DNA of 64,000 nucleotides from a virus (lineage: Duplodnaviria; Heunggongvirae; Uroviricota; Caudoviricetes): the IMG/VR virus record IMGVR_UViG_2724679237_000005, positions 32,001-96,000 of that record, one strand, 5' to 3'. Below are positions 11,052 through 42,793 of the stretch, piece by piece. The position numbers and the translations under genes were made by a program. Every line of letters starts with the position of its first letter. Position 1 is the first letter of the stretch. The notes beneath the pieces were generated by a model, which saw only the letters and a program-made list of their open reading frames with translations, made no database searches and had not been told where the DNA came from.

Positions 11052-12137
11052 TCACACAGCCTCCGAACTCTCCGCTTCGGTGAGGATTTCCTGACACAAA
11101 ATATCCAACTTGCTCAGATCAAATCCGCCGTCAGTATCGTGAACAATCTTGCAATAAGCAGATACCGACTCTCCTAGGCTATCGATTTTGCTGGTTTCCG
11201 TTGTGCTTGCTGTCCCTTCCATCATTGATGACTTACGGATGAAGTTGCACACGACACCTTTTGCACCCATTGTTTTGAGGATGTTCTGGTACTTAATGCC
11301 TTCTTCATCGTTCTCAATTACGGCGCGGAAACGCACGTAGTTGCCGCGAATTTGGTCATCAGCAACATAATCTTCCAGGTTAATGAATTTAGGCGCACTG
11401 GTTTCGTAGTGACTGAAACTGCCGTCCGGGTTTACGATCATGTAACCAGCCAGAGATCCAACATCTCCCCAATTTTGATGGGTCAGTGCACCGACACTGA
11501 TAACTCCAGGAATGACCTCTTTGTGGTTGTGGTAATGCCCACTAAGCACGAGACGAAAGCCGATATCCTTTAACTCCTGCGCATCGATACCGACGTCAGG
11601 CATTGTTGGAATGGCTTTGTTAATGGATGTATGGATAACAACGTCATGATTATCACCTTCTACGCTCTTACGTAATGCTTTCAGATCGCTGATAAGCTCC
11701 GCATGATTGTTACGCCAGCTAATCAGGTGGACAGTCACATCACCAATTTTTATTGAGTGTGGGCGCTTGCCACATACGATTACCACGCCGATAGAACTCA
11801 GCGATGCTGCTGCGTTGGCGCTATATACTGAATCGTTGGTTTCAAGATCGTGATTACCGGCCAGCATTACTACTGTCAGATCAAGCTCGTTGATAATCCA
11901 CTTGTACGTTTCAGTTACGTAATGCAAAACAGAAGGGGACACAGTTCCTCGGACGTGAAATGTATCACCGGCAACCAACATGTACTTACAACCGGCCTTC
12001 TTCATGGCGATGGCTGCTTCTTTCGTTGCTTCCAACTGTATTTCAAGTCTGGAGTTAAGCCCCTCAGCGTTCGTCGTGGAGAACGCATCCCATTTGTGGT
12101 AGTGGCAGTCAGAAATGACGCCGTATGGCAAAGTCAT
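11052..12137 (-). CDS. sbcD: SbcD/Mre11-like nuclease (calcineurin-like phosphoesterase)
   Basis: DCHYH, GDTFH and GNHD metallophosphoesterase motifs; AAAGGA RBS. Confidence 0.8.
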   Translation of the reverse strand: MTLPYGVISDCHYHKWDAFSTTNAEGLNSRLEIQLEATKEAAIAMKKAGCKYMLVAGDTFHVRGTVSPSVLHYVTETYKWIINELDLTVVMLAGNHDLETNDSVYSANAAASLSSIGVVIVCGKRPHSIKIGDVTVHLISWRNNHAELISDLKALRKSVEGDNHDVVIHTSINKAIPTMPDVGIDAQELKDIGFRLVLSGHYHNHKEVIPGVISVGALTHQNWGDVGSLAGYMIVNPDGSFSHYETSAPKFINLEDYVADDQIRGNYVRFRAVIENDEEGIKYQNILKTMGAKGVVCNFIRKSSMMEGTASTTETSKIDSLGESVSAYCKIVHDTDGGFDLSKLDILCQEILTEAESSEAV

Positions 12138-12391
12138 GTGTTTTTCCTTTGTGGTTATTTTGATACAAATTTTAAGAGCAATGAGAAGGTAAACAACTAT
12201 GCATAACGGTATGTTAGGAATGAAACGAGCGTCTTAATATACAAAATTTATAAGTAAGTATATACCTATTTGTTGTGGCGCAACTTTGCTTGTCTGTATG
12301 ACTAAAAATAAGACAGGATCACTGTAGAACGCTATGAGAGCTATTTTGAGGGGGCGTAGATTCTATCTACGCCAATATACGATCTGGAGGG

Positions 12392-13036
12392 TTACAGCGC
12401 GTCAGTGGGCTTTTTACGCGCTGCGTTTATGCTTATGACGCCAGCTTTTGGACGTGGGTCAACAAGGTTAAGCTCTTCTTCGCTGTGGTATTCGAGGTCG
12501 AACTCACGTTTTACATGTCTGATGTAGATTGCGGTGAGCAGGCTATCTTTGGTCAGAAAGTGTCCGTAGGATTTGCGGATCACTTCTTCTACCTTCTCGA
12601 TTTTCTCACCACCCATACAGAGATGATTAAACCGGCTGTGTTTCCGCAACATTTCGTCTACTGGGCCTGAGTAAACCTTGTCTACTTTCCCAAAACGGAT
12701 GATTTTCCCTGTGTCTGCGGATACGAGGCAAATCAGCTTGTCTGGTGATAAACGATCTCGCCACGTCACACCTGAACGGAGTGTGTTGAAGTAGGGAGCA
12801 TCCAATCCGATGATCGGTTTACGAAATGCGAGTAATGGAACGTACCTGATGCAACTGTTTAAATGAAAATTCACACCAGCCTTATCAAGTTTAATTCTGG
12901 TTTCGTAGATCGGGCACTTCGCCGCTATACCGCAGATGTCACAAAGCAACTTCTGCTTATTCAGGTTGGAATTTGATTCGATAGTGTAGGAGCCGTCTTC
13001 AAGACGACGAACCCAGCGCGTGCGTTTTAGATCCAT
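12392..13036 (-). CDS. hypothetical protein
   Basis: 214-aa ORF with ATG start; no recognised domain. Confidence 0.45.
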   Translation of the reverse strand: MDLKRTRWVRRLEDGSYTIESNSNLNKQKLLCDICGIAAKCPIYETRIKLDKAGVNFHLNSCIRYVPLLAFRKPIIGLDAPYFNTLRSGVTWRDRLSPDKLICLVSADTGKIIRFGKVDKVYSGPVDEMLRKHSRFNHLCMGGEKIEKVEEVIRKSYGHFLTKDSLLTAIYIRHVKREFDLEYHSEEELNLVDPRPKAGVISINAARKKPTDAL

Positions 13037-13235
13037 ATGTCATTTTTCTGTGATTGTTAGCCGAGGCAACGATAACCCACCAGGTGCGCCGAAGGTAGTA
13101 AATGCCTGTTTTAATTATTCACATATCCACAGGATAGATCCTAATAAAGAGATCCATAGATAGATCCTTGTATAGATCAAATAAGATCCCCGATCGCTGT
13201 AAGCCGCTCCACGACTGGTCTGAAGCCATGTTCAT

Positions 13236-13341
13236 GTATGCTGCCAGCGGTAATTGATAGTCTGTCAACGGTTCGCCGTATGCTGCCAACTGTTTTTGGT
13301 ATGCTGCCAGCGGCAAATCAAGTATGCTGTCAGCGGTTGAA
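13236..13341. repeat. upstream iteron set (4 copies of GTATGCTG(C/T)CAGCGG) of replication origin
   Basis: direct repeats at 13236, 13278 (degenerate), 13299, 13323 immediately 5' of repA. Confidence 0.7.
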
Positions 13342-13357
13342 TGACAAAGGTGTCCAC

Positions 13358-14985: not shown

Positions 14986-15030
14986 CGACTATGAAATATG
15001 ACTGCGGAACGAGCCGCAGTCAGTTTGCAT

Positions 15031-15754: not shown

Positions 15755-15793
15755 GATAGGTAGATACTAACTTATATAAATTTTACTGTAAAC

Positions 15794-16069
15794 TCACTCA
15801 AAAGTGCTGATGCTTAAAATACGCTCAAGATGTGCGGCATCTTCATCACTGATTTGTTGAGTCTCTTCTACGTACCAACAGTTGCCGTTATGCCAACAAA
15901 CACCATCATCATCAACCATCACTGAATCAGCGTCATGACCTGTATATTCAACGAGAATACGCTGGATCAGCGCGTCAGTTTCCTCGTCGTTAAGGCCATT
16001 GGCTTTGACCATAAAAAGCGGAAACACGTCATAGACAGTGCTGGTAACGATTCGAACTAAAACTCTCAT
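15794..16069 (-). CDS. hypothetical protein
   Basis: 91-aa ORF preceded by conserved AAAAGGAAAAATAC leader. Confidence 0.45.
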   Translation of the reverse strand: MRVLVRIVTSTVYDVFPLFMVKANGLNDEETDALIQRILVEYTGHDADSVMVDDDGVCWHNGNCWYVEETQQISDEDAAHLERILSISTFE

Positions 16070-16124
16070 GTATTTTTCCTTTTGTGGTTAGTGTTTACTT
16101 ATTTTGTTAGTTATGAATAGGCGA

Positions 16125-16550: not shown

Positions 16551-16613
16551 GTTTTACTTCTCCTTATAAATAGGAAAATAATCACCTTTGAAAAAAATAA
16601 AGCAAAGATATAT

Positions 16614-16989: not shown

Positions 16990-16992
16990 TAC

Positions 16993-17193
16993 TTATTTCC
17001 CCTTTGCTTTGATTAATGAGTTGATAAACTTACGACCAGCAATAAGACCGATTACAGGAGCACCAAAACCAACGATAACTCCAAACATGACGGCTAAATC
17101 ACTCTTGGTAGAAATCAGCGACGGAACCAGTAAACCGTAGATGAGAGCCACTGAAAGGCCTGTGGCTACTGCCAATAGATAGATTTTGATCAT
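16993..17193 (-). CDS. small membrane protein (2 predicted TM helices)
   Basis: 66-aa hydrophobic ORF. Confidence 0.45.
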   Translation of the reverse strand: MIKIYLLAVATGLSVALIYGLLVPSLISTKSDLAVMFGVIVGFGAPVIGLIAGRKFINSLIKAKGK

Positions 17194-17253
17194 GTGTTTT
17201 CCTATGTGGTTGTTATGCGAAAATAATAAGTAAGTACTTATATATTTTCAAGA

Positions 17254-17281
17254 GATAAAAAAGGCGTCCTGTGGACGCCTT
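17254..17281 (-). terminator. rho-independent terminator after recombinase gene
   Basis: stem aaggcgtcc/ggacgcctt followed by T6 on minus strand. Confidence 0.65.
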
Positions 17282-17285
17282 GTGT

Positions 17286-18359
17286 TTACTCTTCTACTGA
17301 CTCGGTGGGGTTGTCTTTTGCTCTTCGGTCGTCGATTGCCTGCAAAGCCGCAATGATTTCAGCCAGTGGCTTCTCCCGATACATCTCGACGATCTGCGAT
17401 TTGGTGTATTTCTTGTCACCAATTTCAACTCGCCCGCTGGCGTTCTTTGGCAGGTATCCTTCTTCCAGCATGTACTCGACGAGCGATTCGATAACGTCGA
17501 GGCCACGAGTAGGATCGAAGTAGAATTTCCAGGTGCATTTGCCATACGGTGGTGCAACTTTGTTTTTGATGCATTCTGCGCCTACGTCCTGGCCGATCTT
17601 CTCTTTACCATCCTTCATCACCGATGCACCAAGACGGATACGTACAGAAGCGTAGAACTTCGGTGAATCCCCACCTGGCGACGTAGTAGGGTCGCCAAAC
17701 ATTACACCGATTTTTGTGCGAACCTGATTCAAGAAGATGATGCAGGCGTTGTATTTGCGTGCCCACAAAGCCAGAGTAGGGAAGTTCGCACTCGTCGCAC
17801 GAGCCAGTGCCGTATTGTCGTTCATGTTTAGCTGATCTTTGTCTTTGGCAGTGCCTTCAGCCATCTTTTCGAACTTCTCGGCTTTGGAGTTCGGAACCAT
17901 AGACGCAAGAGAGTCAGCCACGATACAGATTGGTGCTGATTCGGGGATAAGCTCTTCATCACGAACCAATTTAAGTATTGTGCCGATCAACTCTACAGAG
18001 TCTTCGAAGGTATCTGGCTGCTTGTATACCCACTGACCGTCATCCTCATCTGCGTTCAGGCCATTGGCGACAGCCAGGCCAACGTCAAAACTGTTTTCAT
18101 GATCGAGGAATACCGCCAGACCATCTTGTTTTTGAGCGGAGATCATCGCTGCTGTTGCAAGGAACGTTTTCCCTGCACTTGGAGGACCGAATACTTCGAC
18201 GATACGACCACATGGGAAGCCGCCATCGTAACGACCAGAAATAGCTTTGTTTAACGGTGGAAAGCCTGTATCAATCCAATGAGTTACTTTCTGAATTTCG
18301 TCGTTGCTACCGATTTTCTTTTTCAGAGCAAGTGCCAGTGCGGATTTTCCTTTTGCCAT
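17286..18359 (-). CDS. RecA/UvsX-like recombinase
   Basis: Walker A GPPSAGKT in RecA-like context, Walker B IVADSLAS. Confidence 0.8.
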   Translation of the reverse strand: MAKGKSALALALKKKIGSNDEIQKVTHWIDTGFPPLNKAISGRYDGGFPCGRIVEVFGPPSAGKTFLATAAMISAQKQDGLAVFLDHENSFDVGLAVANGLNADEDDGQWVYKQPDTFEDSVELIGTILKLVRDEELIPESAPICIVADSLASMVPNSKAEKFEKMAEGTAKDKDQLNMNDNTALARATSANFPTLALWARKYNACIIFLNQVRTKIGVMFGDPTTSPGGDSPKFYASVRIRLGASVMKDGKEKIGQDVGAECIKNKVAPPYGKCTWKFYFDPTRGLDVIESLVEYMLEEGYLPKNASGRVEIGDKKYTKSQIVEMYREKPLAEIIAALQAIDDRRAKDNPTESVEE

Positions 18360-18361
18360 GA

Positions 18362-18634
18362 TCAGGCTCCTTTTGTTTCGTTGATTCGTTTTAAAGCGGC
18401 GGATTCATCGAATACAATCGCATCGTGGTTAAGGAGTCTGGATACACGAGCGAGGATTTTTACGACCTGCTCGCTGACTAATCCAAACTCGCGATCTGTC
18501 GCTTTCATTCCGGCAGCGCCTAGAATTGACGGCAGTGCGATGACAGCGTACTCACCGTGATAAAAGACAATCTCTTTTGCCAGTTGGGCAGGGGTGGTTG
18601 TAGCGCCATTGATAATCGATTTAAGCATTAGCAA
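18362..18634 (-). CDS. hypothetical protein
   Basis: 90-aa ORF between recombinase and FEN. Confidence 0.4.
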   Translation of the reverse strand: MLMLKSIINGATTTPAQLAKEIVFYHGEYAVIALPSILGAAGMKATDREFGLVSEQVVKILARVSRLLNHDAIVFDESAALKRINETKGA

Positions 18635-19632: not shown

Positions 19633-20661
19633 TTACAGAGAGTCCAGCTCTCTCAGTAGGTCATCCAGACCTTCATCTTCCGTCGCAGATGCGGTTGCTA
19701 CAGATGTCGCTGCGACTGCTTCAGACTCTTTGACTGATACGGCAACGGCAGCGGAACTTGCCTCTGGTTTAAATTCAGTTTCAACGGCACGGAGGATTTC
19801 TTCATCAACCAGACTGGTTGGTTCAGAAGCCGGTGTGTGCGCGGTTGCTACAGCCGTCGCTCCTTCTGTATGACCAGTGACAGAGCCAAATCCAGGTAGT
19901 GCCGCAGCCGATGTTTTCGCGGTTGAGGAAATTGCTGGTGCAGATGCTGCGGCAGTTGGTGCAGCGATGCCAATCAGACGACCCATAGTGCGAACTGTCG
20001 ACAGAAGACGAGTTTCATCAGCCTGATTTGCGTATGCGATCAGATCATGCTGGGTGTTCCAGAATTTATCTTCGATATCGCCTTTGTAGACTTTACGCTT
20101 AGGCGAGACGTCATATTTGGTATCGCGACCAGAGCCAGTACGTTTAATCAGGAATGCGTAGCCTTCCTCTTTGCTCAGTGGATTGCCGATATCATCAGCG
20201 ATGTCTTCGGTGATTGCTTTGCAGATATCATCGAATACAGTAGACGGCAGCTCGATTAACTGGCATTTCTCAGCATCTGCGAAATCCTCACGAGCAGAAA
20301 GAATGCCGTTGACCAGGTAGCGAGGAGTGGCACGCATTTGACCGATGCGTTCTTCCATTGCTTTGTTACCCTTGTGACGAGCGCGACCTTCCATCACCAT
20401 TTCGCATAGCTGACAAGCGCGACCGTGAGTATGTTGCTCACAAATATAAGCGTTGGTTGCTTCTTTACCTTCCTCGTTCTGATACTTAACGTAGTGCATA
20501 CCGAAAGTCTGGAAGAACTTACCGTTTGGGTCGTCTTTATTCGGGAAGATGCGGATATAGTTGACGCCGTCTTTTAAGCGAGTCAGATCAACGTTGTTAC
20601 CACGTTTGGCGGCAATGTCTTCACGAGTTTTGTTAAGCAAATCAAGTAATGTCTTAGACAT
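19633..20661 (-). CDS. gp32-like single-stranded DNA-binding protein
   Basis: IRIFPNK resembles T4 gp32 IRFLPSK; C-x2-H-x-H...C-x2-C zinc motif; acidic C-terminal tail; AAGGAGA RBS. Confidence 0.55.
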   Translation of the reverse strand: MSKTLLDLLNKTREDIAAKRGNNVDLTRLKDGVNYIRIFPNKDDPNGKFFQTFGMHYVKYQNEEGKEATNAYICEQHTHGRACQLCEMVMEGRARHKGNKAMEERIGQMRATPRYLVNGILSAREDFADAEKCQLIELPSTVFDDICKAITEDIADDIGNPLSKEEGYAFLIKRTGSGRDTKYDVSPKRKVYKGDIEDKFWNTQHDLIAYANQADETRLLSTVRTMGRLIGIAAPTAAASAPAISSTAKTSAAALPGFGSVTGHTEGATAVATAHTPASEPTSLVDEEILRAVETEFKPEASSAAVAVSVKESEAVAATSVATASATEDEGLDDLLRELDSL

Positions 20662-20778
20662 GTGTTTCTCCTTGTTGTGATTTGGCCGATGGCGCTATGC
20701 GCGTTGGGCTTTCGTTCATTCGTGGCTCTTTCGAGCTGTTAAATGATAGATCAGTACTTACTTATTATCTATCAAAAA

Positions 20779-21335: not shown

Positions 21336-22505
21336 TCACGTCTTAATAGTTTCTGCTACGTCGGCTAATATCGCTTCTAGTCGTTCTCCCTCTTCAGGTC
21401 TGAAGTAAAGAATGTTGGGGTTAAACCCGTAAAAGACAGTAACGTCAAGGTCTGGAAGATACTCCTTCCTGCCGACCAAATCGGATGGCTTGTTTTTGTT
21501 GTTAAACAATGCCGTTGCCCGGCTGCCACACGTCAGCACATAGGTCGGACGCACCAGATTGATCTCTTCACGTATAAAGTCGGTGAACTGGCCGATCTCG
21601 TCTTTGGTGTAGTCTTTTTCTTTGTCTTTAACCTTCTTGCAAACGCCTGTGACATAGAGATCGCCCATGCGTAAATCTCCAGCCGTCAATAGCTTGGCCT
21701 TAAAGTCGTCGTATCCGTTCTCCATAAAGTAACCGGTTCGAGCATCATTGCCGTTCGCATTGTCCAGAATGATCATGATTTTCGGCTTAATACCAATGCT
21801 GGGGCGGATTAGTTCATCACCTAAGCCCATTTCAGCCGCCATCCGCGTCATGAGTACGTTAATTTCAGCCGAACGTTTGGGGTTCATCTCAAACGAACGT
21901 GAGGCTTTAACTGCGTCTATGACAAGATTTCCCATCAATTCAGCCTGGTCGCGTAGGCGCTCTGGAGCAGTTGCTGGCAGACTACCTGGCTCGATGGATG
22001 CAAACGCCCCTACTTTTTGCAGCGATTCGCGCACTCGACTATTACAGGCACGTTTCTCGACAGCTTCTTCGAATTGCGCCAGTGACTCGAATTTGCCGCC
22101 AACTTTTTCTCGCGCTCTCATGATGGCTTGGCAGCCATTCTCAGAACACCCCTTCACAGCAGAGAATGGCGCATACAGCACCTGGCTGCCATCTTCAAGC
22201 GTGCGGATCTCGATTCGGTTAGATGACACGTTAACGTCTGGTGGCAATACGCGAATTCCATAGGTCAGCGCATCTTTAACCAGCCCTTGGTGTTTATCTT
22301 CGCCAAGAATAGTGAGAGCAGCAGCGAAAAACTCTGCGGGATAATGAGTTTTCAACCACATAGATTGATAACTGATTAAGGAGTAAGCAACAGAGTGTGA
22401 TTTGTTGAAGGCATACGCGCCGGATTTCTCAAACATATTCCAGATTTCTTCGGCTCGTTCGTGCGTCAGGCCATTGCTCTCTTCAACTACACTGGTAATT
22501 TTCAT
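21336..22505 (-). CDS. dnaE: DNA polymerase III alpha (DnaE-type) C-terminal fragment
   Basis: YAFNKSHSVAYSLISYQSMWLKTHYPAEFFAA matches DnaE segment following the fingers domain. Confidence 0.8.
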   Translation of the reverse strand: MKITSVVEESNGLTHERAEEIWNMFEKSGAYAFNKSHSVAYSLISYQSMWLKTHYPAEFFAAALTILGEDKHQGLVKDALTYGIRVLPPDVNVSSNRIEIRTLEDGSQVLYAPFSAVKGCSENGCQAIMRAREKVGGKFESLAQFEEAVEKRACNSRVRESLQKVGAFASIEPGSLPATAPERLRDQAELMGNLVIDAVKASRSFEMNPKRSAEINVLMTRMAAEMGLGDELIRPSIGIKPKIMIILDNANGNDARTGYFMENGYDDFKAKLLTAGDLRMGDLYVTGVCKKVKDKEKDYTKDEIGQFTDFIREEINLVRPTYVLTCGSRATALFNNKNKPSDLVGRKEYLPDLDVTVFYGFNPNILYFRPEEGERLEAILADVAETIKT

Positions 22506-23236
22506 TCAGTCACCTCATCAATCTTCACGAACTCATACCCATTGGAGGCCAGCCAGTCCCGCTGGCGCTCCCAGCTCCATACCTTTTCACGCATTTCGCT
22601 ATGCAGGCGAATGTGGGCGTCTTCTGGAAGTGCCACCAGATTCCCAGGGGCGTTATCTACCGTATCGCGGTTAATATGGTGGACATGTTCATCGTCACGT
22701 AGCTCCCGACCGAGACGTTCTTTCGCTATCAACCGATGAACGTATTCGTATTGCGAAACGCCATTGTTACCAACCAGCTGCATCATGTAGCCGTTGGTTT
22801 TTACGATGATGCCATCTTTGTAGTTGTTCGCTTCTTCTCCGATCTTTCCGCGTTTGGCAGCCGCCAGCTTTTCCTTCGTCTCCGCGCGGATTGTTCTGCC
22901 GGTTAGCTTTTTCGAAACGGTGGCCACTCGCTCATCGATATCAGCACGCAGACCGGCATTCCACGAGGTTTTCCCATACATAGGGTTGCCAGTGCCAGTC
23001 CGGGCTTCGGAGAGTCGCTTCATACGTTCGTCATTATTTTTGTTTTTGCCACGATTCCAGGCTGGGGTAGCGGAGATCCGCGCGTTTCCGCGCCTGATCC
23101 CCCATTTGGCTAATAAGCGGTCAATATTTGCCTTGCTGCAACCAGCTTCGGCGGCAATGTCTTCTTTTCTCATCAGGTCAACCATGTAACGCTGACGTAA
23201 CCATTCTTCTGTGATTTTGTACTTCGTACTCGGCAT
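22502..23236 (-). CDS. HNH homing endonuclease inserted between dnaE fragments
   Basis: C-terminal HNH motif (EHVHHINRD...N) plus NUMOD-like repeats. Confidence 0.75.
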   Translation of the reverse strand: MPSTKYKITEEWLRQRYMVDLMRKEDIAAEAGCSKANIDRLLAKWGIRRGNARISATPAWNRGKNKNNDERMKRLSEARTGTGNPMYGKTSWNAGLRADIDERVATVSKKLTGRTIRAETKEKLAAAKRGKIGEEANNYKDGIIVKTNGYMMQLVGNNGVSQYEYVHRLIAKERLGRELRDDEHVHHINRDTVDNAPGNLVALPEDAHIRLHSEMREKVWSWERQRDWLASNGYEFVKIDEVTE

Positions 23237-23250: not shown

Positions 23251-23269
23251 AAACAAATTGTTTTCTTAT
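23251..23269 (-). promoter_or_regulatory. same element, site 2 (upstream of HNH endonuclease gene)
   Basis: AAACAAATTGTTTTCTTAT. Confidence 0.5.
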
Positions 23270-25648: not shown

Positions 25649-25832
25649 GTGTTTTTACCTTTCTGGTTTTTTTGATTTTGTCATTGGGGAAGCCTACGAA
25701 CTTCCCATGCATCGAAATCGCAACTTCTTTTGCTGATTGGTGACAATCGGGCTTGTCTGGACACACCAGACAAGCCTTACCAGTTTCAGAAGCAGCGATA
25801 AGAGAGCCGAAACATCCTTTACGCACGATCAA
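25623..25832 (-). CDS. small Cys-rich hypothetical protein
   Basis: 69-aa ORF with C-x4-C...C-x2-C-x5-C-H; overlaps both neighbours; weak. Confidence 0.25.
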   Translation of the reverse strand: MIVRKGCFGSLIAASETGKACLVCPDKPDCHQSAKEVAISMHGKFVGFPNDKIKKTRKVKTHEGTDGSN

Positions 25833-27064: not shown

Positions 27065-27159
27065 GCGTTTTTCCTTTGTTTTCTAATGAGCGTTCAACTT
27101 CTTATATAAATATATCATTAACTATCGTAAGTGGTTACTTATCATTAAGGCTGTTTTGT

Positions 27160-29268: not shown

Positions 29269-29286
29269 GGCTAATCCTTTGTTATG

Positions 29287-29305
29287 AAAACAAATTATTT
29301 ACTAG
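29287..29305 (-). promoter_or_regulatory. same element, degenerate site 3 (upstream of CobT-like gene)
   Basis: AAACAAATTATTTACTAGT. Confidence 0.35.
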
Positions 29306-31771: not shown

Positions 31772-31945
31772 TGTTACCTCATAGAATTGATATGCAACTT
31801 TACTTACAAAGAAGATAGGTATGTGCATACTTATCATTGCAGTCTGCATTATAAAGCTATTAAAGCCTCGATCAATCTATTAATTAAGGCATTGTTTGGT
31901 TAACATTACCCTAATATTTTATAGTTAGTAGAGTGAAATACATAC

Positions 31946-33400: not shown

Positions 33401-33487
33401 TGGCGGAGAGTAATGGAATCGAACCATCATCGTTTGCACAATGGGACGGTTTTCAAGACCGCTTGAGCACCATGCTCCCTACTCTCC
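33401..33487 (-). tRNA. tRNA-Ser (anticodon UGA), type II with long variable arm
   Basis: hand-folded cloverleaf: acceptor GGAGAGT/ACTCTCC, anticodon loop CTTGAAA, T-loop GGTTCGATTCC, encoded CCA. Confidence 0.75.
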
Positions 33488-33807
33488 AGCTATTGTGATG
33501 GTCGGTGCTGAACTCCGACACAGGGTTGTAGCAAGCCCCGCAAAGCGCGCACTACTGTAGTTGCGGCACATCAGCCTGTGCATTCATCACAATGGTAAGA
33601 TCACTACCTTTCGACCAGTCATTGTGCACATGAACGACGATTAACCGTAATGATATTATCGTTGTGTTGTGAAGCCAGATGCTTATCTTCTGGTTGCTTC
33701 AAAGAGCTGCACTTCCTCACAACGGTAAGAGCACTGGTCTGACTCTATCGATTTACGGCCTTGTGGGTCAGTATCGCCGATTCGCCCAATGCTCTTACCT
33801 GTTGTGT

Positions 33808-33883
33808 TGGTGCCGGTTAACGGACTTGAACCGCTGGCCATTCGCTTACAAAACGACTGCTCTACCAACTGAGCTAAACCGGC
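33808..33883 (-). tRNA. tRNA-Thr (anticodon UGU)
   Basis: acceptor GCCGGTT/AACCGGC, D-arm GCTCAGTTGGTAGAGC, anticodon loop TTTGTAA, T-arm AGCGGTTCAAGTCCGTT, CCA. Confidence 0.8.
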
Positions 33884-33887
33884 AATT

Positions 33888-33974
33888 TGGTGGGGAGTGA
33901 TGGAGTCGAACCACCCGAGTCGCCATGACAGTAGATTTACAGTCTACACCGCTACCTCTACGGACTAACTCCCC
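33888..33974 (-). tRNA. tRNA-Tyr (anticodon GUA), long variable arm
   Basis: acceptor GGGGAGT/ACTCCCC, anticodon arm GTAGA-CTGTAAA-TCTAC, T-loop GGTTCGACTCC, CCA. Confidence 0.7.
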
Positions 33975-33979
33975 TAAAT

Positions 33980-34054
33980 TGGCGATGGTGGGTGGATTCG
34001 AACCACCGACCAGTTGGTTAACAGCCAACTGCTCTACCGCTGAGCTACACCATC
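33980..34054 (-). tRNA. tRNA-Asn (anticodon GUU)
   Basis: acceptor GATGGTG/CACCATC, anticodon arm GTTGG-CTGTTAA-CCAAC, T-arm GGTGGTTCGAATCCACC, CCA. Confidence 0.8.
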
Positions 34055-34832
34055 AATTCAGCACTGCCAGTATTTATTACTCAACAGTGCCAATCGCGAC
34101 GGTTTAGTTTCTGCCAGGAAACGCACCGCTACTTGCACTTTTCGTTAGTGCCAGACGCTTTCGACTTCGCTCAATAGTAGAAGGCAAAATCTTTAAGTAG
34201 ATGATGTTTCTGAGGACAGCACCTACTTTGTAATTTATACAATGTGATGTATGGAATCATTTGTTGTGAAAACAGGCACCAATGGCAACAGTGGTTAAAC
34301 CTACACAACAATCCCGTCTTCACAACGTTGAGGCCACTACTCCGATTGAATGTTTGCCCAACATGTTACATATCAACGCTCGCCGGTATCTCTGTGAATA
34401 GAACCTTAGAATTGATAAAAATGTAATGGCCTCAACGTTGTGTGCTGGCTAACCATACCAGCCGGGCTACGTCGCCGCTTTTTAACCCAGTATAAACGAC
34501 ATAATTGAACAAAATGACGTAACAGGATGGGCGGTCAGTGGCTAAGAATCCGGGAGTCATATGGAGTTGAAAATATACCAACCGCCCATTCTGTTACTTC
34601 ATCGGAGGGAACATGAATGTTCCCTCCTGCGTTCTGCAATCACACTCGCTCAGTGTGTCCCATTTCGGTAACGAGGCTGGAAACTGACCTCGCTGGTGTT
34701 TGGCTTATTAGGCTACTGCCAGATAGACTTCTTCGTTTGCACTTGTATTTAAGTTCAAACAGTCGCGTCTCAACGAAAACAAAGTCATCTTATACATAAA
34801 AGATAAGTAAGTAAACACTTATCGCTGTGTTT

Positions 34833-35647: not shown

Positions 35648-36966
35648 TCTTTATCTCCGATTCGATCTTCTGTATCGCGTAAGCAACGCGGCCATTTCAG
35701 TCGTGGGTGGCGTAAGCTGCCATCCGGCGTTTTCTCGTGACAATGAACCTCGACAATACGACCACGGTACTTCTCTTTGTTGTTCCAGATCTCGTCCAGA
35801 TATTTATGCTTAATGCCGCTCGCACGAACAATCACACCGTTTTCAAGGCGAATAACAATTTTTCCAAGCGTGTTGGCAAAACCAGAGTCCGGGTCGCCCG
35901 GCTCAAAGTCGATAATTTCACCATCTTCTGAATCTTCGTCTTTTAACTTCCACCAGCTGCGGGTACGTTTAAACTCGTAAACAGAGTTCGGATCTTTGCC
36001 CATCTCCCCTTCTTCGTTATCGTCCAGGCGTTTCATGAAGCGTTCGATGAAGTCTTCGTGGCTATGGATGATATAGAACGGATGCAGGTGAATGTCTTGT
36101 GTGTAGCCTTCACTGCGATCGTTTTTGAACAACGCCACCAGCATAGCCAGGCGCTCTTTCAGCTTCATACCTGTCTTTGCATACTCTTTGGATTTAGCCT
36201 GTGCTCGCCATTCCGGTAGGAAGAAGTCGAAAACATGATAAATAGCGCCAATTGCCTGCACGTTCTTTTTGCGCAATGCAGATACGGACTGGTTAAATGA
36301 ACCGGCTGTTCCTTCACCATCGAAGAAGATGTGTTTGTGGCCTGAAAGTTTGCCTAATTCGAGCATGGCTGGCTTTAGGTGATCGAGAGACGTGATTGGA
36401 TTACCAGTACGAGAAAGGAAGTTAACCTCTTCCTCGTCAACAATAACCTCACAAATTACTCGCAAACCATCGAGCTTAAGGCTGCCAATCATCGGCCATT
36501 TGGCTTTAGGATTTGGCTTGAAGGGGTATTTGTCGCCTTTTTCTTTATACGGTGACGCCAGCTGCACCTCGAATTTCGGAATGGGATTTTCAAAAACCTT
36601 GTTGCATAGGCTAATCCCAACGCCAGCTTTCGGATCTTTTAAGAGGAAACGACGGAAGACGTCCTGCCCATCGGCGCACATTGACGCAACGATAGACTCA
36701 ACAGCAGCTATTGCTGCGTTCCCCGTCAGCTCGCGAGAGGCCAGCTTATTCAGTATATCAATGGCTTTTTCGTCACTAGGGACGGACTCACTAAGCGGCT
36801 CTGCCACTTTGTATTTCTTTACCCCAAAACGGATGAAAGGGTTGAGCATCAATGAAACCATGCTTTGCTCGAAGTCATCCATGTTGGCTAATGCCTCTTT
36901 TTTTGCATTGGTTCCCATAGCTTTCATTTCGTCCAGCTTATGCTTAAGTGCGATCAACTTTTTCAT
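35644..36966 (-). CDS. ATP-dependent DNA ligase
   Basis: KLDGLR (motif I KxDG), FDGEG, WWKLK motifs of nucleotidyltransferase ligases. Confidence 0.8.
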   Translation of the reverse strand: MKKLIALKHKLDEMKAMGTNAKKEALANMDDFEQSMVSLMLNPFIRFGVKKYKVAEPLSESVPSDEKAIDILNKLASRELTGNAAIAAVESIVASMCADGQDVFRRFLLKDPKAGVGISLCNKVFENPIPKFEVQLASPYKEKGDKYPFKPNPKAKWPMIGSLKLDGLRVICEVIVDEEEVNFLSRTGNPITSLDHLKPAMLELGKLSGHKHIFFDGEGTAGSFNQSVSALRKKNVQAIGAIYHVFDFFLPEWRAQAKSKEYAKTGMKLKERLAMLVALFKNDRSEGYTQDIHLHPFYIIHSHEDFIERFMKRLDDNEEGEMGKDPNSVYEFKRTRSWWKLKDEDSEDGEIIDFEPGDPDSGFANTLGKIVIRLENGVIVRASGIKHKYLDEIWNNKEKYRGRIVEVHCHEKTPDGSLRHPRLKWPRCLRDTEDRIGDKE

Positions 36967-37445
36967 TGTTGTTTTGCCTCCATATGTTGATCGATTTGCT
37001 CATGTGTTTCTTTTGTTGTTTCTTCAAGCAACGCCGCATACACGTCAGTGATCGCTGTTTGTGATGTGGTGCTCTTCTTAACCATGCTATTAATCGTTAC
37101 ACTGTCACGTTTTCGTTTTATAGTTCTGGCTTGTTTATTCCGTTCTTCAACCTCCTTAATGAGTGCGGTCATATCTTCAAAATACAGAGATTCTCCTTTA
37201 CGAATCTCTTCAACCATCATTTTTAACGCCTTGCATTTGCCTGCTTTAATAGCGGTTGCGCACGACTGGAAAGAAGTTCGAGGAAGACGGTTTTCTTTGA
37301 AGGCAAGAATGGTGTGCTGGCAAACGGAATAGCTGCAATATGCCGACTCACCGTTTATCTTTACTTCCTCACAACGAAGTGAATAACCGTTATTTCCTGA
37401 AATAGAAGGGATTTTTGACAAATCAGCTTTCACAATTACCGCCAA
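36963..37445 (-). CDS. hypothetical Cys-rich protein
   Basis: 160-aa ORF; start codon uncertain (TTG in ORF track). Confidence 0.4.
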   Translation of the reverse strand: MAVIVKADLSKIPSISGNNGYSLRCEEVKINGESAYCSYSVCQHTILAFKENRLPRTSFQSCATAIKAGKCKALKMMVEEIRKGESLYFEDMTALIKEVEERNKQARTIKRKRDSVTINSMVKKSTTSQTAITDVYAALLEETTKETHEQIDQHMEAKQQ

Positions 37446-37500
37446 AAATAATCTTGTGCTTACCTATCATTATTTGCGTAAAAAACGACACACTGAGAGC

Positions 37501-38283
37501 TTACCAACTTCCCCAGCTAATCATCTTGCGCTGATCGCTTTCTAAGCGATAGGGGGCAAGAAGCTCTGTGACATGATTGGTGGCGTATGATTTAGCCTCT
37601 TGCTCTATCATCGGTAATTCGTTAGCAATCCTGACCATCTTCCCAGCAAATTCCGCCATTACGCCATCACATGCCTTACCCGCATCAACAACGATATGCA
37701 CCAGATCCAACTGGCTTTTGCACATGTCCCAAAGAGTCGAATATTCGCTCTCCCTGATTAGGTTTACAGCATCATTAGCCCCTTTATTAATCAAAACCTC
37801 CAACAGATTTGTCGGGGTGACGAAATCGGCTTTCAGAGACAATGTTGGTTCAGCTTTTACCGACAGCAAGTAATCTTCAAAGTTTTGCTTGTCTTCCAGC
37901 AAAGCTAAACTACGCATAGCTCGAATTGATTCTCGAATAACGGCTTCAATATGTTCGTCACCTGGAGGACAGATAATAGTATCTGTATAGATGACTCTGC
38001 CATCAAACCACGCCCCAACCTGCACTTTTAGAGTTCGTAAGTTTTCTTTGCGTACAAAAACAACTAATGCAGAACGTCGTGCATGTGCAGGTTCGCCCCA
38101 TACGCACAACTTAACCTTCAGATAAGGTAGCCCCGGTAGAGGGATCTCGACCAAACGAGTGGCGATATGATCCATTGCCGTATTGACGGCTTTTTCAATG
38201 ATGTCTAGCCGATTGCTCTCGCTGATTTCTAAACCAGTTTTATCAATGATGTTGCAGGCTAATCTCTTAATTTCTTCTTTCAT
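37501..38283 (-). CDS. hypothetical protein
   Basis: 260-aa ORF with AGGAG RBS. Confidence 0.5.
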   Translation of the reverse strand: MKEEIKRLACNIIDKTGLEISESNRLDIIEKAVNTAMDHIATRLVEIPLPGLPYLKVKLCVWGEPAHARRSALVVFVRKENLRTLKVQVGAWFDGRVIYTDTIICPPGDEHIEAVIRESIRAMRSLALLEDKQNFEDYLLSVKAEPTLSLKADFVTPTNLLEVLINKGANDAVNLIRESEYSTLWDMCKSQLDLVHIVVDAGKACDGVMAEFAGKMVRIANELPMIEQEAKSYATNHVTELLAPYRLESDQRKMISWGSW

Positions 38284-38408
38284 ACCAACTCCTAGCTAAC
38301 GGATGAAAGTATTCTTACAAAAACTTAAGTATGTATCTACTTATCATTTTAGATGCAATAGTTCTTTATACTAAGATGCCGGGCATATCCTCAGCCCAGC
38401 ATTCACCT

Positions 38409-38822: not shown

Positions 38823-39052
38823 TTTGACTTCCCTTTATTTATATTTATCGTAGGTATTAGTTAACCAAAACACGAGCCGTGTCACAATAATTCCATAGCT
38901 CATTATCTCTATCGGTGATTAATATCACATCAACTTTACAGTCCATAAATTAAATTATCAAAGCTGACAGATTAACTAAATTTAAGTACCCTTTTCGCAC
39001 ACTTGACGCTTGCCGCGTCTAAACTATTCATCCTATATCAACAGAAAAAAAC

Positions 39053-40198
39053 ATGAAATACATAAAACCTTCATCGTTGCTGGCATTAACTTTGCTTTTT
39101 AGCTCTGGATTCGTTAACGCAGACAATAAACAAACGCTGATAGAAGCCGCTAACGCAGGTGATACCGCAGCACAAAGTGAGTTAGGGACAAATTATTTGG
39201 ATGGTGTCAATGGTTTTGATAAGGATGTAGTTGAGGCCAAGAAGTGGATTGATCTCGCTGCAGAAAAGGGAGATAAAGTAGCATATTATGCACTTGGAGT
39301 TATGTACACATTTGGCGAGGGTGTAGATAAAGACCTAAATAAAGCTGTTGAGTACTACAAACTTGCGGGGGATGCTCGTGAAGGTAGAGCCTACAACAAT
39401 CTTGGTGCTATTTATCAAAAGGGGATGCTTGGTAAAGTAGATCATGCACTCGCCATTAAATACTTCAAACTAGCCTCTGATGCCGGGTATGTTAAAGCAA
39501 CTTCAGTTCTTGGGGCGTATTACCAATATGGTAAAGGCGTTCAAAAGAATTATAAAAAGGCTTTTACTTATTACAAAAAGGCGGCAGACCAAGGCAGTTC
39601 AGAAGCTATGATAGGATTAGGAATACTATACGATGATGGGTTAGGCGTTAAACGCAATGATGCAGAAGCAGTTAAGTGGTATAAAAAGGCAGCGGAACTT
39701 GGAAACGCCGACGCCATAACCAATCTTGGCATTATGTATGAGAATGGGGAAGGAGTAAAAAAGGACTATAAAAAAGCAGCCGACCTTTATCAGACTGCTT
39801 GCAATAAAGGAGAAAAAAGAGGCTGTGAATACATTACTGAACTGAAAGAAAGCGGAAAATATCGAGTATCTGATTCCAAAGCCAAATCAAAATCAGATGT
39901 ACAGCGACTTATTGCTAAATCCATTGATAAAGGCGTTAACGCAACTTTTACCTGGCAAGGTGATGACGCCACATTCACCGCTAATGGCGGCAAAATTGAC
40001 TGCACTTTCCTAAAGGATTTTTCAGAGAAAGGAGGCAATCTGGCTACCTCGTTTGTTTGCACCGATAACGTTCAAATCATCCTGAAGCAATTCAGAGATA
40101 CCAAGAATGCCTACCTCGCGGTAATGACTGACAACTTCAACACAGAAGTTAAATCATTTTCGGTCAATGTTTACGTGACTAATACTGGTTCAAACTAA
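39053..40198 (+). CDS. secreted Sel1-like repeat (SLR/TPR-like) protein with extra C-terminal domain
   Basis: signal peptide then about 6 repeats of A..W(Y)..AA..G...A...LG.MY..G.GV..D; plus strand, lower GC. Confidence 0.75.
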   Translation: MKYIKPSSLLALTLLFSSGFVNADNKQTLIEAANAGDTAAQSELGTNYLDGVNGFDKDVVEAKKWIDLAAEKGDKVAYYALGVMYTFGEGVDKDLNKAVEYYKLAGDAREGRAYNNLGAIYQKGMLGKVDHALAIKYFKLASDAGYVKATSVLGAYYQYGKGVQKNYKKAFTYYKKAADQGSSEAMIGLGILYDDGLGVKRNDAEAVKWYKKAAELGNADAITNLGIMYENGEGVKKDYKKAADLYQTACNKGEKRGCEYITELKESGKYRVSDSKAKSKSDVQRLIAKSIDKGVNATFTWQGDDATFTANGGKIDCTFLKDFSEKGGNLATSFVCTDNVQIILKQFRDTKNAYLAVMTDNFNTEVKSFSVNVYVTNTGSN

Positions 40199-41371
40199 TG
40201 CTGCTATGCCTTTTACCTTGCTTAAAAGTTCAAGCTGTCGTGAGTAAGGTTTTGCGCAATAGTAGGCTTTGATAATCTTCCCCGGTGTCGCATCGCCGGG
40301 GTCGAGTCCTTCCTCGCCCAAACACGCAACTTTGACATTAAGACCGATACTGGTCAGTCGCCTGGCTGCGGCCATAGTGTTGCGTATAGCTTGCTTTTCA
40401 CTATCCCACATCATGATCACATTACGTAACCCACGCGCCTTGAGCGTCAGGAACGCGCCTAACTGATCTTCTGCATCCTGAGTGGTGTTACCAGATAGAT
40501 GCATCCCGAACGTTCCTATTGGTTCCACGTAATCACGTAATGTTTCTTCGTCAAAAATAGCTCGTTTAACCCCCATAACATCGAACGCCCCCTCACAGAC
40601 AACTACAGTCTGTTTGCCGACTGCATTATGGCCGTTGTAGAGAAACTTACCTGAAGCTGGAAGCTGCATAGGAAAGAGGTAGCGGCGTTCTGCTGTACCG
40701 GTAATGTCTCGTCCCTGAAATGTCTTCATTACCCCATCCAGATCGTAAACCGGTATCAGTATTCGCATATCGAATATCTGCCCTTTTACCTGATCTGTAT
40801 ACGGATCTACATAAGCGTGCTTGCCTTCGACGCAGTATCGTAGGTCAAAATACTTTGCCATTTCAGGTGATATGTTTCGTTCAACCAGATAGTCTGGAAG
40901 ACGGCCATCTATAGGAAGCTCGTAATGACGAGGGAGTGCAACTGGCCCCTCTAACTCGACTGTGCTTGCAAGCACTAGCTCTTCTTTCTTTGGTGCCCAC
41001 CCCTGGGAAAGAAGGGCGTTCTGCACATATTCCTCGAACTGTCGTCGTGATTTGCCGCTGTAGTGCTTGAGGAAGACCAGCTTATTGAACTGAATCTCTT
41101 CGGGATGATCACCAGCGAAGCATTTACCGACGCCACTGGTCAGATTGAAATATACCTTCCAGTTGGAGCTGCCGCATACCGGACACTCTTTGATATTCAC
41201 TTCACGACCGCGAGCACTCACGCCTCCACGTCGATAAACGATACCTTCAGTATCCAACCATTGTTCAAAATCTAATTCGGCAATTAGCTCTTTCAGCTCG
41301 CTCACGATAATTCCACTTTTAACAGGCAATATTGTGACCAACCTAAATGTTGATATAACATAAAGGCTCAT
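40190..41371 (-). CDS. DnaG-like DNA primase (zinc finger + TOPRIM)
   Basis: CPVCGSS...C zinc ribbon, TOPRIM VVVCEGAFD; start taken at internal ATG (ORF-track start is GTG at 41443). Confidence 0.7.
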   Translation of the reverse strand: MSLYVISTFRLVTILPVKSGIIVSELKELIAELDFEQWLDTEGIVYRRGGVSARGREVNIKECPVCGSSNWKVYFNLTSGVGKCFAGDHPEEIQFNKLVFLKHYSGKSRRQFEEYVQNALLSQGWAPKKEELVLASTVELEGPVALPRHYELPIDGRLPDYLVERNISPEMAKYFDLRYCVEGKHAYVDPYTDQVKGQIFDMRILIPVYDLDGVMKTFQGRDITGTAERRYLFPMQLPASGKFLYNGHNAVGKQTVVVCEGAFDVMGVKRAIFDEETLRDYVEPIGTFGMHLSGNTTQDAEDQLGAFLTLKARGLRNVIMMWDSEKQAIRNTMAAARRLTSIGLNVKVACLGEEGLDPGDATPGKIIKAYYCAKPYSRQLELLSKVKGIAALV

Positions 41372-41424
41372 GTGTTTTTCTTTTGTGGTTTGGCAAAAGA
41401 AAAGTTGTTTCACCAATGAATCAA

Positions 41425-41456
41425 GCGTGGAGGTGTTCTCCACGCTTATTTTTTAG
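41425..41456. terminator. hairpin with flanking T/A runs between helicase and primase genes
   Basis: stem gcgtggag/ctccacgc; overlaps the alternative primase GTG start. Confidence 0.35.
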
Positions 41457-42793
41457 GTAACGTCTAAGATTCGCTCAATGAAGCGCATTTGTTCGAGGTT
41501 TTGTTTAACGCGAATGCTGATCCCTCCCTGCTGGTTACGCGAACCAGCAAAGTAGAGACGAGCCTCTCCTTTCGCTTCTTCTTCTTCGGTTTTGTTGATC
41601 GTTATTACCAGGTCAGCAATACGTACTTTTTCGATGTTGTCGGCAGCGTGCATCATTGTGGCAACTTCTGACGCGCCACCTTCACGGTTTGTTTGCGACG
41701 CCGTGATACCAGCAACGTTATGCTTGTCATAAAGAGCACGTAAATCGGTGTAGATACTACGAATGTTGGCGCGATCATCACGAAGGTCATAACTGGCACG
41801 CATCAAATCTGCGTAGTCGACAACAACCATGTCAGGCACCATGCCATTGGCTTTCATACTGTTAAGCATACGGTCCAGATCTGCCGGTGACATACTTCCT
41901 GACGGACGCTCAACAACCCACAAACTACCAATCCCCTTAGAGGCTCCCAACTCTGCCAACTTACGATGAACTTCATCGCGCCGTTCCACCAACTTGGACA
42001 TTTCCGTCTCCGACAATCTTGCATCAAAACGGTCGGACAAAATGTTGGTGTGAACCTCCAGCGAGAGATACAGAACATTGTAGCCAGCAAGCGTTGCGTT
42101 TATGGAAAACTCACCCATTGCGGTCGATTTACCGGATTTAGCGAACCCCATGAAGAGCACCATTTCGCGCTTTGCCCAGCCTTTTTGGTACAGCAACCTA
42201 TCGAGAAGAGGGAGTCCAGTTGTAATACTGTTTGGTACATACTCCTCTGAAGCCTCATATTCACGCGCTTTCAATCGCTCACTTGCGGAGGTGTAGTAGT
42301 CATAGATTCCGGTCGCTTCGTTCGATCCAATCTGCTGAACCTTGGCCATGATTGCCATCGCCCCCTGAAAGTCGCCCTTCTCTTTCAGTTCAGCAGCCTT
42401 AATCAGAGCATCATCAAACGCTACGCTTTTTGCGAAGGTTGATACCTGGTCAACCATGTACGAGGTATCGGACAATTTTTCTGCAAGGATGCGCTTAAAC
42501 GCAGCAACAACATCGGCGAATAGTTCCTCACGGATAGTCTTATCGCGTTTCGCACGCTTAAGCATATCCAGAATTGCAGATGAAGAGGGCGCGCTCTTGT
42601 ACATACGGTAATAGCCCGAAACCATATTAACCAATATGGCATTGGCCGCATTGGCAAATTGGCTAGGCACAACCAGATCTCCCGCACGAGTAAGAAACTC
42701 GTGATCACGACAAAAATATGCCGTCAGTCTGTTCTGGAAATCTTCATCAAACTCTTCGGACAGCCCGCGTCCTGTATGGCAAAGTTCGGTCAT
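41453..42793 (-). CDS. DnaB-like replicative helicase
   Basis: RecA-fold Walker A GFAKSGKST, Walker B VVVDYADL; ATG start with AAGGA RBS. Confidence 0.8.
   Translation of the reverse strand: MTELCHTGRGLSEEFDEDFQNRLTAYFCRDHEFLTRAGDLVVPSQFANAANAILVNMVSGYYRMYKSAPSSSAILDMLKRAKRDKTIREELFADVVAAFKRILAEKLSDTSYMVDQVSTFAKSVAFDDALIKAAELKEKGDFQGAMAIMAKVQQIGSNEATGIYDYYTSASERLKAREYEASEEYVPNSITTGLPLLDRLLYQKGWAKREMVLFMGFAKSGKSTAMGEFSINATLAGYNVLYLSLEVHTNILSDRFDARLSETEMSKLVERRDEVHRKLAELGASKGIGSLWVVERPSGSMSPADLDRMLNSMKANGMVPDMVVVDYADLMRASYDLRDDRANIRSIYTDLRALYDKHNVAGITASQTNREGGASEVATMMHAADNIEKVRIADLVITINKTEEEEAKGEARLYFAGSRNQQGGISIRVKQNLEQMRFIERILDVT

Follow-up and report, generated by a model that had tools for sequence, protein, structure and literature searches.

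A C/A-rich leader shared by nine genes of an SSU5-like phage-plasmid and its likeness to ACA-type translation enhancers

In yifK and dppA, ACA triplets lying next to the Shine-Dalgarno (SD) sequence raise expression up to 100-fold, and this enhancer effect is independent of the exact position of the triplet and of the SD-AUG spacing (PMC3879156). The C/A-rich ACA enhancers of dppA, yifK and gltI are at the same time targets of the small RNA (sRNA) GcvB (Yang, Figueroa-Bossi and Bossi 2014, PMC3879156). In E. coli libraries, translation likewise benefits from A-rich spacers (PMC7264876), and in T4 some 30 initiation regions, A-rich, unstructured and inclusive of the AUG, are repressed by RegA (PMC3014915). 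Here we examine a recurrent leader of about 20 nucleotides (nt) that directly precedes the ATG of nine genes in a 64-kb stretch of DNA (hereafter the window; positions 32,001 to 96,000 of the IMG/VR record IMGVR_UViG_2724679237_000005), which is part of an SSU5-like E. coli phage-plasmid. The leader class is real, statistically solid and conserved, and by analogy with the enhancers above we consider it most likely to be a C/A-rich, ACA-motif type of translation-enhancer initiation region, which would make it an ordinary kind of strong start rather than a new mechanism. A literature search found no published account of such leaders in SSU5, pHCM2-like elements or phage-plasmids.

Like the ACA enhancers, the phage-plasmid leader places ACA or CACA directly 5' of a moderate SD within an unstructured leader. 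The enhancers tolerate changes in motif position and in SD-AUG spacing, and natural variants of the leader retained in relatives differ in their internal spacing. In E. coli, the initiation region of dppA, AAAACAACAAACAUCACAAUUGGAGCAGAAUA-AUG, is built in the same style, and dppA (...AACAAACAUCACAAUUGGAG...) and the leader of the gp32-like gene of the window (...AAAUCACAACAAGGAG...) both carry AUCACAA before the SD. Two features set the phage-plasmid leader apart from these enhancers: a second CAC or ACA stands directly before the AUG and is its most invariant part, and nine genes of a single mobile element carry the same ~20-nt string. The A/U-rich, S1-dependent enhancers, to which the T7 gene 10 leader of E. 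coli expression systems belongs, form a further point of comparison. With these and with A-rich spacer designs (PMC7264876) the leader shares a purine-rich or oligo-A spacer at positions -6 to -3 and a low folding energy, but C is advised against in such designs (PMC7264876), whereas CAC at -3 to -1 is the hallmark of the phage-plasmid leader.

A leader class at a minority of starts

A first-pass annotation of the window had described a nearly identical sequence upstream of seven start codons (5099, 12137, 16069, 17193, 27064, 41371 and 42793). The leader is indeed present at all seven, on the coding (minus) strand and adjoining the ATG, and the range of 12137-42793 assigned there to the leader genes needs correction, as nrdB (5099) falls outside it. 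The 22-mer AACCACAAAGGAAAAACACATG occurs exactly at 12135-12156(-) and with one mismatch at 41369-41390(-), with 0 expected; GGAAAAACACATG, allowing up to two mismatches, has 10 matches against 2.6 expected, a number reached in 0 of 100 shuffles; and AAACACATG has seven exact matches against 1.1 expected. In a scan with a position weight matrix (PWM) derived from the seven seeds, these come out on top, and two further starts join them, with scores of 17.3 at the gp32-like SSB gene (20661) and 13.8 at the PolIII-alpha-like polymerase gene (25648). Its top eight matches all lie on the minus strand and are followed directly by an ATG that opens an open reading frame (ORF) of 66-446 codons. Two matches away from starts score between the two added members (20346, score 15.8, followed by ATC, and 37001, score 15.0), and the matrix also gives an offset copy at 25650. 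The class comprises 9 of the ~70 window genes, all on the minus strand and with the motif always adjoining the ATG, so that a leader said to be common to many genes is shared by a definite gene set without being general. When the window, SSU5 and PhiR41_1 are searched together with a 16-nt core (up to three mismatches), ATG follows directly in 12 of 13 matches, and the opposite strand has none. A reading of the leader as coding sequence was rejected, as the ORFs of six members begin at that very ATG, the first start after a stop.

The window shares 98% identity with Escherichia phages CMS-2020a and PhiR41_1, 97.5% with Cyrano and 82% with Salmonella phage SSU5. Start-site statistics were computed on the independently annotated starts of SSU5 (123) and PhiR41_1 (122), because start calling based on SD energy mis-called several class genes; paired figures given below for the class and for other genes refer to these two relatives. 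Averaged over all genes, the upstream regions carry information only at -12 to -8, that is, in the SD columns, because about 90% of genes lie outside the leader class. The first-pass annotation had proposed a conserved leader extending well beyond the SD and had pointed to an alignment of all genes as the check. Taken literally, that alignment shows conservation of the SD alone, and the proposal does not hold for the all-gene average; a sub-family is nevertheless real, and for this sub-class the proposal stands, carried by its excess over shuffles and by its conservation among orthologues.

The excess appears in several forms. The hexamer AAACAC ends the upstream region of 8 genes in SSU5 and 7 in PhiR41_1, where 0.06 and 0.05 are expected, and CAC does so in 12 and 11 genes (1.5 and 1.3 expected). 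We also shuffled each alignment column independently, which keeps the SD signal, and counted near-identical pairs of upstream regions, defined as those that agree at 15 or more of 22 bases. There are 16 such pairs in SSU5 against 1.4 expected and 20 in PhiR41_1 against 1.15; without the SD columns, the counts are 6 against 0.7 and 4 against 0.6. Single-linkage clustering of the upstream regions yields one dominant cluster, which is the leader class.

Composition, folding and evolution of the leader

The consensus consists of an A/C-rich stretch, often (A)ACCACA or AACA, followed by AAGGA, a purine spacer (AAAA) and (A)ACAC immediately before the ATG, with CACA directly 5' of AAGGA in most class members. 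Between -24 and -1 the nine window leaders have a composition of 61% A, 22% C, 11% G and 6% T; with U nearly absent and G largely confined to the SD, the leader would be unable to fold on itself. The density of ACA per 26 nt (-25 to +1) is 2.4-2.9 in the class and 0.40-0.46 in other genes of the same genomes, and ACA occupies -4 to -2 in 6/8 and 7/9 class members as against 4/115 and 2/113 other genes. The predicted mean minimum free energy (MFE) over -30 to +21 is -3.0 to -3.5 kcal/mol for the class versus -6.8 kcal/mol for other starts (p 0.001-0.004), and the predicted unpaired probability is 0.63-0.65 versus 0.46-0.47. Eight of the nine window leaders are predicted to fold no better than their own shuffles, the exception being that of the primase gene. 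A search of the whole window with Rfam 15 at the gathering score returned three tRNAs only and no match to a cis-regulatory RNA.

Orthologous upstream regions, drawn from 80-locus sets of relatives, show a per-column conservation of 0.85-0.98 over -22 to -1, similar to that of first and second codon positions, while third codon positions reach 0.68-0.84; judged from these alignments, the leaders are under purifying selection. What varies among orthologues is the upstream portion and even the SD, which is AGAGGG at SSU5 nrdB, while relatives show CTTACCAACAAGGAG at the 91-amino-acid (aa) ORF. GGA and CAC stand 3 to 10 nt apart (GGAAACAC, GGAAAAGACAC and the helicase variants GGATAACAAACAC); in some relatives the helicase gene is preceded by GGATAACAAACAC-ATG, with a longer spacer and an end that is still AAACAC. 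Despite such changes of SD and spacer, orthologue leaders keep the (A)ACAC-ATG end, with transitions to TAC or CAT as the only departures. The variable GGA-to-CAC spacing, with CAC fixed at the AUG, fits independent, position-tolerant modules rather than one rigid protein site, and the combination of start-codon adjacency, strand specificity and spacing tolerance points to translation initiation rather than to a DNA site.

The arrangement is also found in front of other genes. Relatives that carry a different gene at the same position (the g22505 set) again have GGGAAAAACAC-ATG there. Of the 119 matches to AAGGAAAAACAC-ATG listed from viral contigs, 98 stand before ORFs of 60 codons or more, and many of these contigs look unrelated, with GC contents of 0.26-0.67. 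This shows only that AAGGAAAAACAC-ATG is not private to the SSU5-like family and that the configuration is a generally usable start signal.

A probable enhancer-type start and its rivals

We favour, at a probability of about 0.55, the view that the leader is a reusable, self-sufficient and structure-free ribosome-landing cassette for genes without translational coupling. It would act as a 'house-style' initiation region for genes that must recruit ribosomes independently, those that come first in transcription units or lie behind an intergenic gap and that serve mostly in DNA replication, recombination and nucleotide metabolism. In such a start, a moderate SD (AAGGA, ~7 nt from the AUG) would be combined with a purine-rich spacer and with CACA/ACAC directly 5' of both the SD and the AUG; the resulting single-stranded landing site for the 30S subunit would raise initiation, possibly through protein S1, and the outcome would be uniformly efficient, context-independent translation of the leader genes. 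In the two annotated relatives, class members have same-strand upstream gaps of 43-180 nt (one of 763 nt) and the polymerase gene is the only one that is translationally coupled, whereas 36-39% of other genes begin within 20 nt of the preceding stop. Both the enhancer activity and the dispensability of a dedicated trans-acting factor are what we infer from this picture. If it is correct, nature provides here a clean case in which a mobile element reuses one ribosome-binding cassette that is modular, C/A-rich and free of structure; the leader is then also a candidate context-independent ribosome-binding site for engineering, and a marker of independently translated genes in a clinically widespread phage-plasmid family. 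The leader further helps to correct start-codon annotation in SSU5-like phage-plasmids, of which the SSU5 primase gene is an example: a leader plus ATG at 35821-35839 (CACAAAAGAAAAACAC-ATGAGC) precedes the primase start annotated at 35905 by 68 nt and is in a different reading frame, which suggests either a mis-annotated start or a frameshift in that record.

Several observations weigh against a generic enhancer. Given the composition of the leaders, ACA is only marginally over-represented (24 versus 17.9, P 0.05) while CAC is clearly enriched (13 versus 5.6, P 0.002); since CAC is enriched beyond composition, a recognition more specific than that of a generic 'ACA enhancer' is possible. The CAC preference at -3 to -1 is left unexplained by an enhancer, and the randomised-spacer study recommends A-rich spacers that avoid C (PMC7264876). 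Initiation regions outside the class are about equally conserved among relatives (0.91-0.95), so that conservation of the leader shows function and not uniqueness of the class, and the enrichment of AAGGAAAAACAC-ATG at starts is what any SD-plus-ATG pattern would give. Lastly, the primase gene is a member with almost no SD and with predicted occlusion by hairpins. Its leader and ATG (41369-41401(-), CCAAACCACAAAAGAAAAACAC-ATG) contain a degenerate SD (AAAAGAA); an upstream arm, UUCUUUUG, can pair with CAAAAGAA in a predicted anti-SD hairpin, and a second predicted hairpin covers the AUG. The initiation region (41351-41401(-)) has an MFE of -8.8 kcal/mol (z -3.0), with 0 of 200 shuffles as stable; in relatives, a single U-A pair of the helix is replaced by C-G, a compensatory exchange, and one further variant disrupts the helix.

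The same CAC enrichment, together with the retention of AAACAC-ATG when SD and spacer change, would also fit a leader that is the common operator of a post-transcriptional regulon in which one trans-acting factor, with GcvB, the gp32-like SSB and a FljA-like repressor as candidates, gates translation of replication and nucleotide-metabolism genes. We regard this as unlikely but worth entertaining, and slightly less probable in its strict form, in which a single factor (GcvB/Hfq, the gp32-like SSB or the FljA-like protein) reads CACA...ACAC-AUG and gates replication, recombination and deoxynucleotide-synthesis genes together. R1 of GcvB is perfectly complementary to AAACACA (7 nt, including the A of AUG) or AUCACAAC (8 nt) in 6/8 and 6/9 class leaders, and complements at least 7 nt at only 6/115 and 4/113 other starts; AUCACAAC in the gp32-like leader is such an 8-nt complement, and the same AUCACAA stands directly 5' of the SD in dppA, on which GcvB is proven to act (PMC3879156). 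However, a C/A-rich sequence of any kind will almost automatically complement a G/U-rich sRNA, a 7-bp A-U-rich duplex is weak, and the duplex energies of class and other genes differ little (-18.0 versus -15.3, p 0.04). The gp32-like SSB (19633-20661(-)) belongs to the T4 gp32 family (Pfam PF08804, E 1.7e-66), and T4 gp32 represses its own unstructured leader (PMC3014915). The T4 gene 32 operator consists of a 5' pseudoknot and, behind it, a long unstructured leader. At the window SSB gene an unstructured A-rich initiation region lies behind a conserved GC hairpin, but this hairpin is without covariation, a pseudoknot is not evident, and eight other genes share the leader without the hairpin. 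T4 RegA operators offer a parallel in that many replication and nucleotide-metabolism genes carry an unstructured A-rich stretch adjoining or including the AUG (PMC3014915); RegA sites, which have a 5' poly(A) tract, are however A+U-rich (AAAAUUGUUAUGUAA), while the phage-plasmid leaders, which also contain a poly(A) tract, are A+C-rich, with 6% U. CsrA sites present GGA in hairpin loops, usually at least two with one over the SD, unlike the single GGA in unstructured RNA of the class leaders. The FljA-like protein is encoded by the element family outside the window (PF03614; E 1.3e-68 at 37195-37710(-) of PhiR41_1 and 3e-81 for SSU5_121, 46897-47343(-)), and FljA has been reported to block translation of fliC mRNA (PMC2652032), but this protein more plausibly binds the palindromic DNA boxes inside promoters that are described below. 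Against any single trans-acting factor, the variable GGA-to-CAC spacing disfavours one rigid protein site, and no copy of the reverse complement of the leader, as an antisense or anti-leader sequence, occurs in the window, SSU5 or the first 100 kb of PhiR41_1. Pfam detected no RegA, RegB, CsrA, Hfq, S1-like or MazF-like domain in 88 proteins (30 from the window and 58 from the rest of PhiR41_1), a set that takes in only part of the proteins with an obvious enzymatic or structural annotation. Were a trans-acting factor at work, it would provide a post-transcriptional switch over replication genes that bears on the choice between plasmid maintenance and lytic growth, and the regulon could keep the leader genes low in the plasmid-prophage state or tie phage replication to the amino-acid status of the host.

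The first-pass annotation had also suggested a processing site, and for this we find no support. An endonucleolytic mRNA processing site, whether like the T4 RegB/S1 sites or for an ACA-specific toxin such as MazF, is in our judgement highly improbable. Its appeal lies in the T4 precedent, where RegB with S1 cuts the extended stereotyped SD-plus-A-rich site GG*AGRAYARAA (PMC3014915), as well as in the presence in the leader of ACA, the MazF recognition triplet (PMC3879156); the T4 sites resemble the leader in being an extended, stereotyped SD that is A-rich on its 3' side and that precedes early genes at intergenic starts. Yet GGAG, which RegB requires, is absent from 7/9 leaders, which have GGAA, GGTA or AAGA instead, the consensus GGAGRAYARAA is fitted by 0/9, the GGAG of the gp32-like leader included, and neither a RegB homologue nor a MazF-like domain was found in the proteins scanned. 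RNase E and RNase III are disfavoured because the leader is nearly without U and without duplex, respectively, the Rfam search gave no match, and cleavage that destroys the SD fits poorly with replication genes that are needed throughout. We attach equally little weight to the idea that the repeats are recombination-spread copies of one cassette, short linker homologies for module shuffling that are otherwise without function. The recurrence of exact strings (AACCACA, for instance) at four unrelated genes, non-orthologous genes behind GGGAAAAACAC-ATG in relatives and the recombinase and exonuclease encoded by the element itself are in keeping with such linkers. However, the similarity stops ~22 nt from the ATG and always keeps the same register with the start codon, the purifying selection indicated above sits badly with functionless copies, orthologous upstream regions diverge gradually without a break at the leader, and 19-22 nt is short for homologous exchange.

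Member genes, operator-like boxes and neighbouring features

Of the window genes (72 non-overlapping ORFs), nearly all lie on the minus strand; genes for nucleotide metabolism, recombination, replication and partition occupy ~1 to 46 kb, together with a tRNA cluster, and lysis and tail genes 46 to 64 kb. The nrdB leader and ATG occupy 5097-5121(-) (CAAAAAACAAAAGGAAAAACAC-ATG, PWM score 31.0), with the nrdA stop, a hairpin (5199-5181) and a GATAACAACTTGTTT palindrome (5130-5144) upstream. The consensus copy belongs to the gene of an sbcD-like metallophosphoesterase (12135-12159(-), AATAACCACAAAGGAAAAACAC-ATG) and is nearly invariant in 34 distinct relatives, at 0.97 per column. A putative sigma-70-like promoter, TTGTTT (12191-12196) and TAAAAT (12169-12174) separated by 16 nt, lies at 12169-12196(-); it scores below the promoter-scan threshold and would start a transcript ~25 nt before the ATG. 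Relatives keep the hexamer (TAGAAT/TAAAAT) at the same distance from the ATG, while sequence further upstream diverges. The sequence ATTGCTCTTAAAATTT (12167-12182) was considered for its resemblance to the P1 C1 operator, but the relaxed pattern ATTGCTCTNNNAANTT, at up to two mismatches, gives 10 matches against 9.3 expected, and the likeness is probably due to chance.

The 91-aa ORF (leader and ATG 16067-16091(-), CTAACCACAAAAGGAAAAATAC-ATG) has a ATAAGTAAACAC box adjoining at 16091-16102 and reads CTTACCAACAAGGAGAAAACAC-ATG in relatives. For the 66-aa membrane-protein ORF (17191-17215(-), TAACAACCACATAGGAAAACAC-ATG), a strong sigma-70-type promoter at 17223-17251(-), TTGAAA-17-TATTAT (10/12) with a ATAAGTACTTAC palindrome in its spacer, comes right after a terminator (17281-17261), ends 30 nt before the ATG and is conserved in 28 distinct relatives; the predicted 5' untranslated region (5'UTR) of ~23 nt is roughly the leader. 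Conserved -10-like hexamers end 32 nt before the ATG at both the sbcD-like gene and the 91-aa ORF, and for these two and the 66-aa ORF the leader would constitute essentially the entire 5'UTR of 23-25 nt. A fixed promoter-to-leader geometry fits these three, where the -10 element ends ~30-32 nt before the ATG, and was rejected as a general rule because it fails for the gp32-like gene, nrdB, primase and polymerase.

At the gp32-like gene (leader and ATG 20659-20683(-), AAATCACAACAAGGAGAAACAC-ATG, conservation 0.96 per column), a promoter-like element at 20743-20771(-), TAGATA-17-TATCAT, has a ATAAGTAAGTAC box in its spacer. The 5'UTR of ~75 nt holds GC hairpins ahead of the leader (20684-20740(-)) that are invariant in 12 distinct relatives; among these relatives there are 0 compensatory pairs, and a pseudoknot is not predicted. 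This 5'UTR may act as an operator for autoregulation, in the manner of T4 gene 32. The leader of the PolIII-alpha-like polymerase gene (25646-25670(-), AAAACCAGAAAGGTAAAAACAC-ATG, 0.98 per column) sits within the 3' end of a small upstream ORF (25623-25832). That of the CobS-like ATPase gene lies at 27062-27086(-) (TTAGAAAACAAAGGAAAAACGC-ATG), with a ATAAGTAACCAC box at 27131-27142, and the DnaB-like helicase region at 42791-42829(-) comprises TAAAAAAAACAAAGGAAAGCAC-ATG and, just upstream, the palindrome GAAAACAATTTGTTT (42815-42829). Looser versions precede the recombinase gene (18357-18381(-), CGAAACAAAAGGAGCCTGATC-ATG) and the CobT-like gene (29266-29290(-), CATAACAAAGGATTAGCC-ATG). In the ligase region (36964-37025(-)), the gene starts with GGAGGCAAAACAACA-ATG at 36966, and a second leader-like copy, AACAACAAAAGAAACAC-ATG, has its ATG at 37003, 37 nt 5' of the ligase start. 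It opens an ORF of only 19 codons that overlaps the ligase start out of frame. This could be an upstream mini-ORF whose translation is coupled to that of the ligase gene, or the copy may have arisen by chance.

Two other repeated motifs look like operators, and seven of the nine leaders have one of them within ~25-120 nt upstream. The palindromic box ATAAGTA-N-TACTTAT (ATAAGTAAGTAC) has 26 matches in the window against 2.6 expected and occupies ~14 intergenic regions before early and tail genes (2854-2869, 7570-7581, 12250-12269, 15756-15767, 16091-16102, 17226-17241, 20750-20765, 27131-27142, 31823-31834, 34803-34822, 38333-38344, 43596-43611, 54248-54267 and 61170-61185). In two tool-called promoters it stands in the spacer between -35 and -10, and it resembles an operator for a global repressor, or else a promoter element specific to the phage. 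The annotated 'transcriptional repressor' of the element is homologous over its full length to FljA, which represses phase-1 flagellin; this FljA-family phage-plasmid repressor is a lead both on the origin of FljA and on its target here. A second palindrome, GAAAACAANTTGTTT, has 10 matches against 1.3 expected; on the minus strand it lies at 5130-5144, 23251-23265, 29286-29302, 42815-42829 and 45744-45758, that is, 10-45 nt before the starts of nrdB, an HNH-endonuclease-like gene, the CobT-like gene, the helicase gene and parA. In SSU5 it is found upstream of 34417, 42761, 81779, 82493, 88395, 92199, 92784, 93745 and 94552, and between 81 and 95 kb it stands before many small genes; it probably represents a second class of operator. 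A DnaA-box reading of TAACCACA was rejected, as it fails the T at position 4 of the consensus TTATNCACA.

A late gene outside the class, encoding a 111-aa tail protein (61529-61550(-)), has a typical CsrA-type hairpin, in which the SD lies in the 4-nt loop of an 8-bp stem, UCUCACA-AGGA-UGUGAGA. The 41-nt region has an MFE of -13.3 kcal/mol (z -2.1), and the hairpin is conserved in SSU5 and matches RUACARGGAUGU, the CsrA consensus from SELEX. The next gene has a similar arrangement, UUUCA-AGGA-UGAAA (61111-61130(-)), and the corresponding 8-mer is not enriched across the window. Elsewhere in the window, a cluster of four tRNAs (33401-34054(-); Ser-TGA, Thr-TGT, Tyr-GTA and Asn-GTT), three of them confirmed by Rfam, occupies a place where the SSU5 annotation has tRNA-Asn only. 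Two free-standing homing-endonuclease-like ORFs lie among the replication genes (22502-23236(-) and 43861-44628(+)), one with HNH_3 and NUMOD3 domains and the other with a GIY-YIG LEM-3-like domain; the HNH gene has an N-terminal tblastn match in only 6 of 80 related loci. The plus-strand gene at 39053-40198(+) encodes a Sel1-repeat protein (PF08238, E 1e-52), and its start, at which an SD is not recognisable, is preceded by AACAGAAAAAAAC-ATG.

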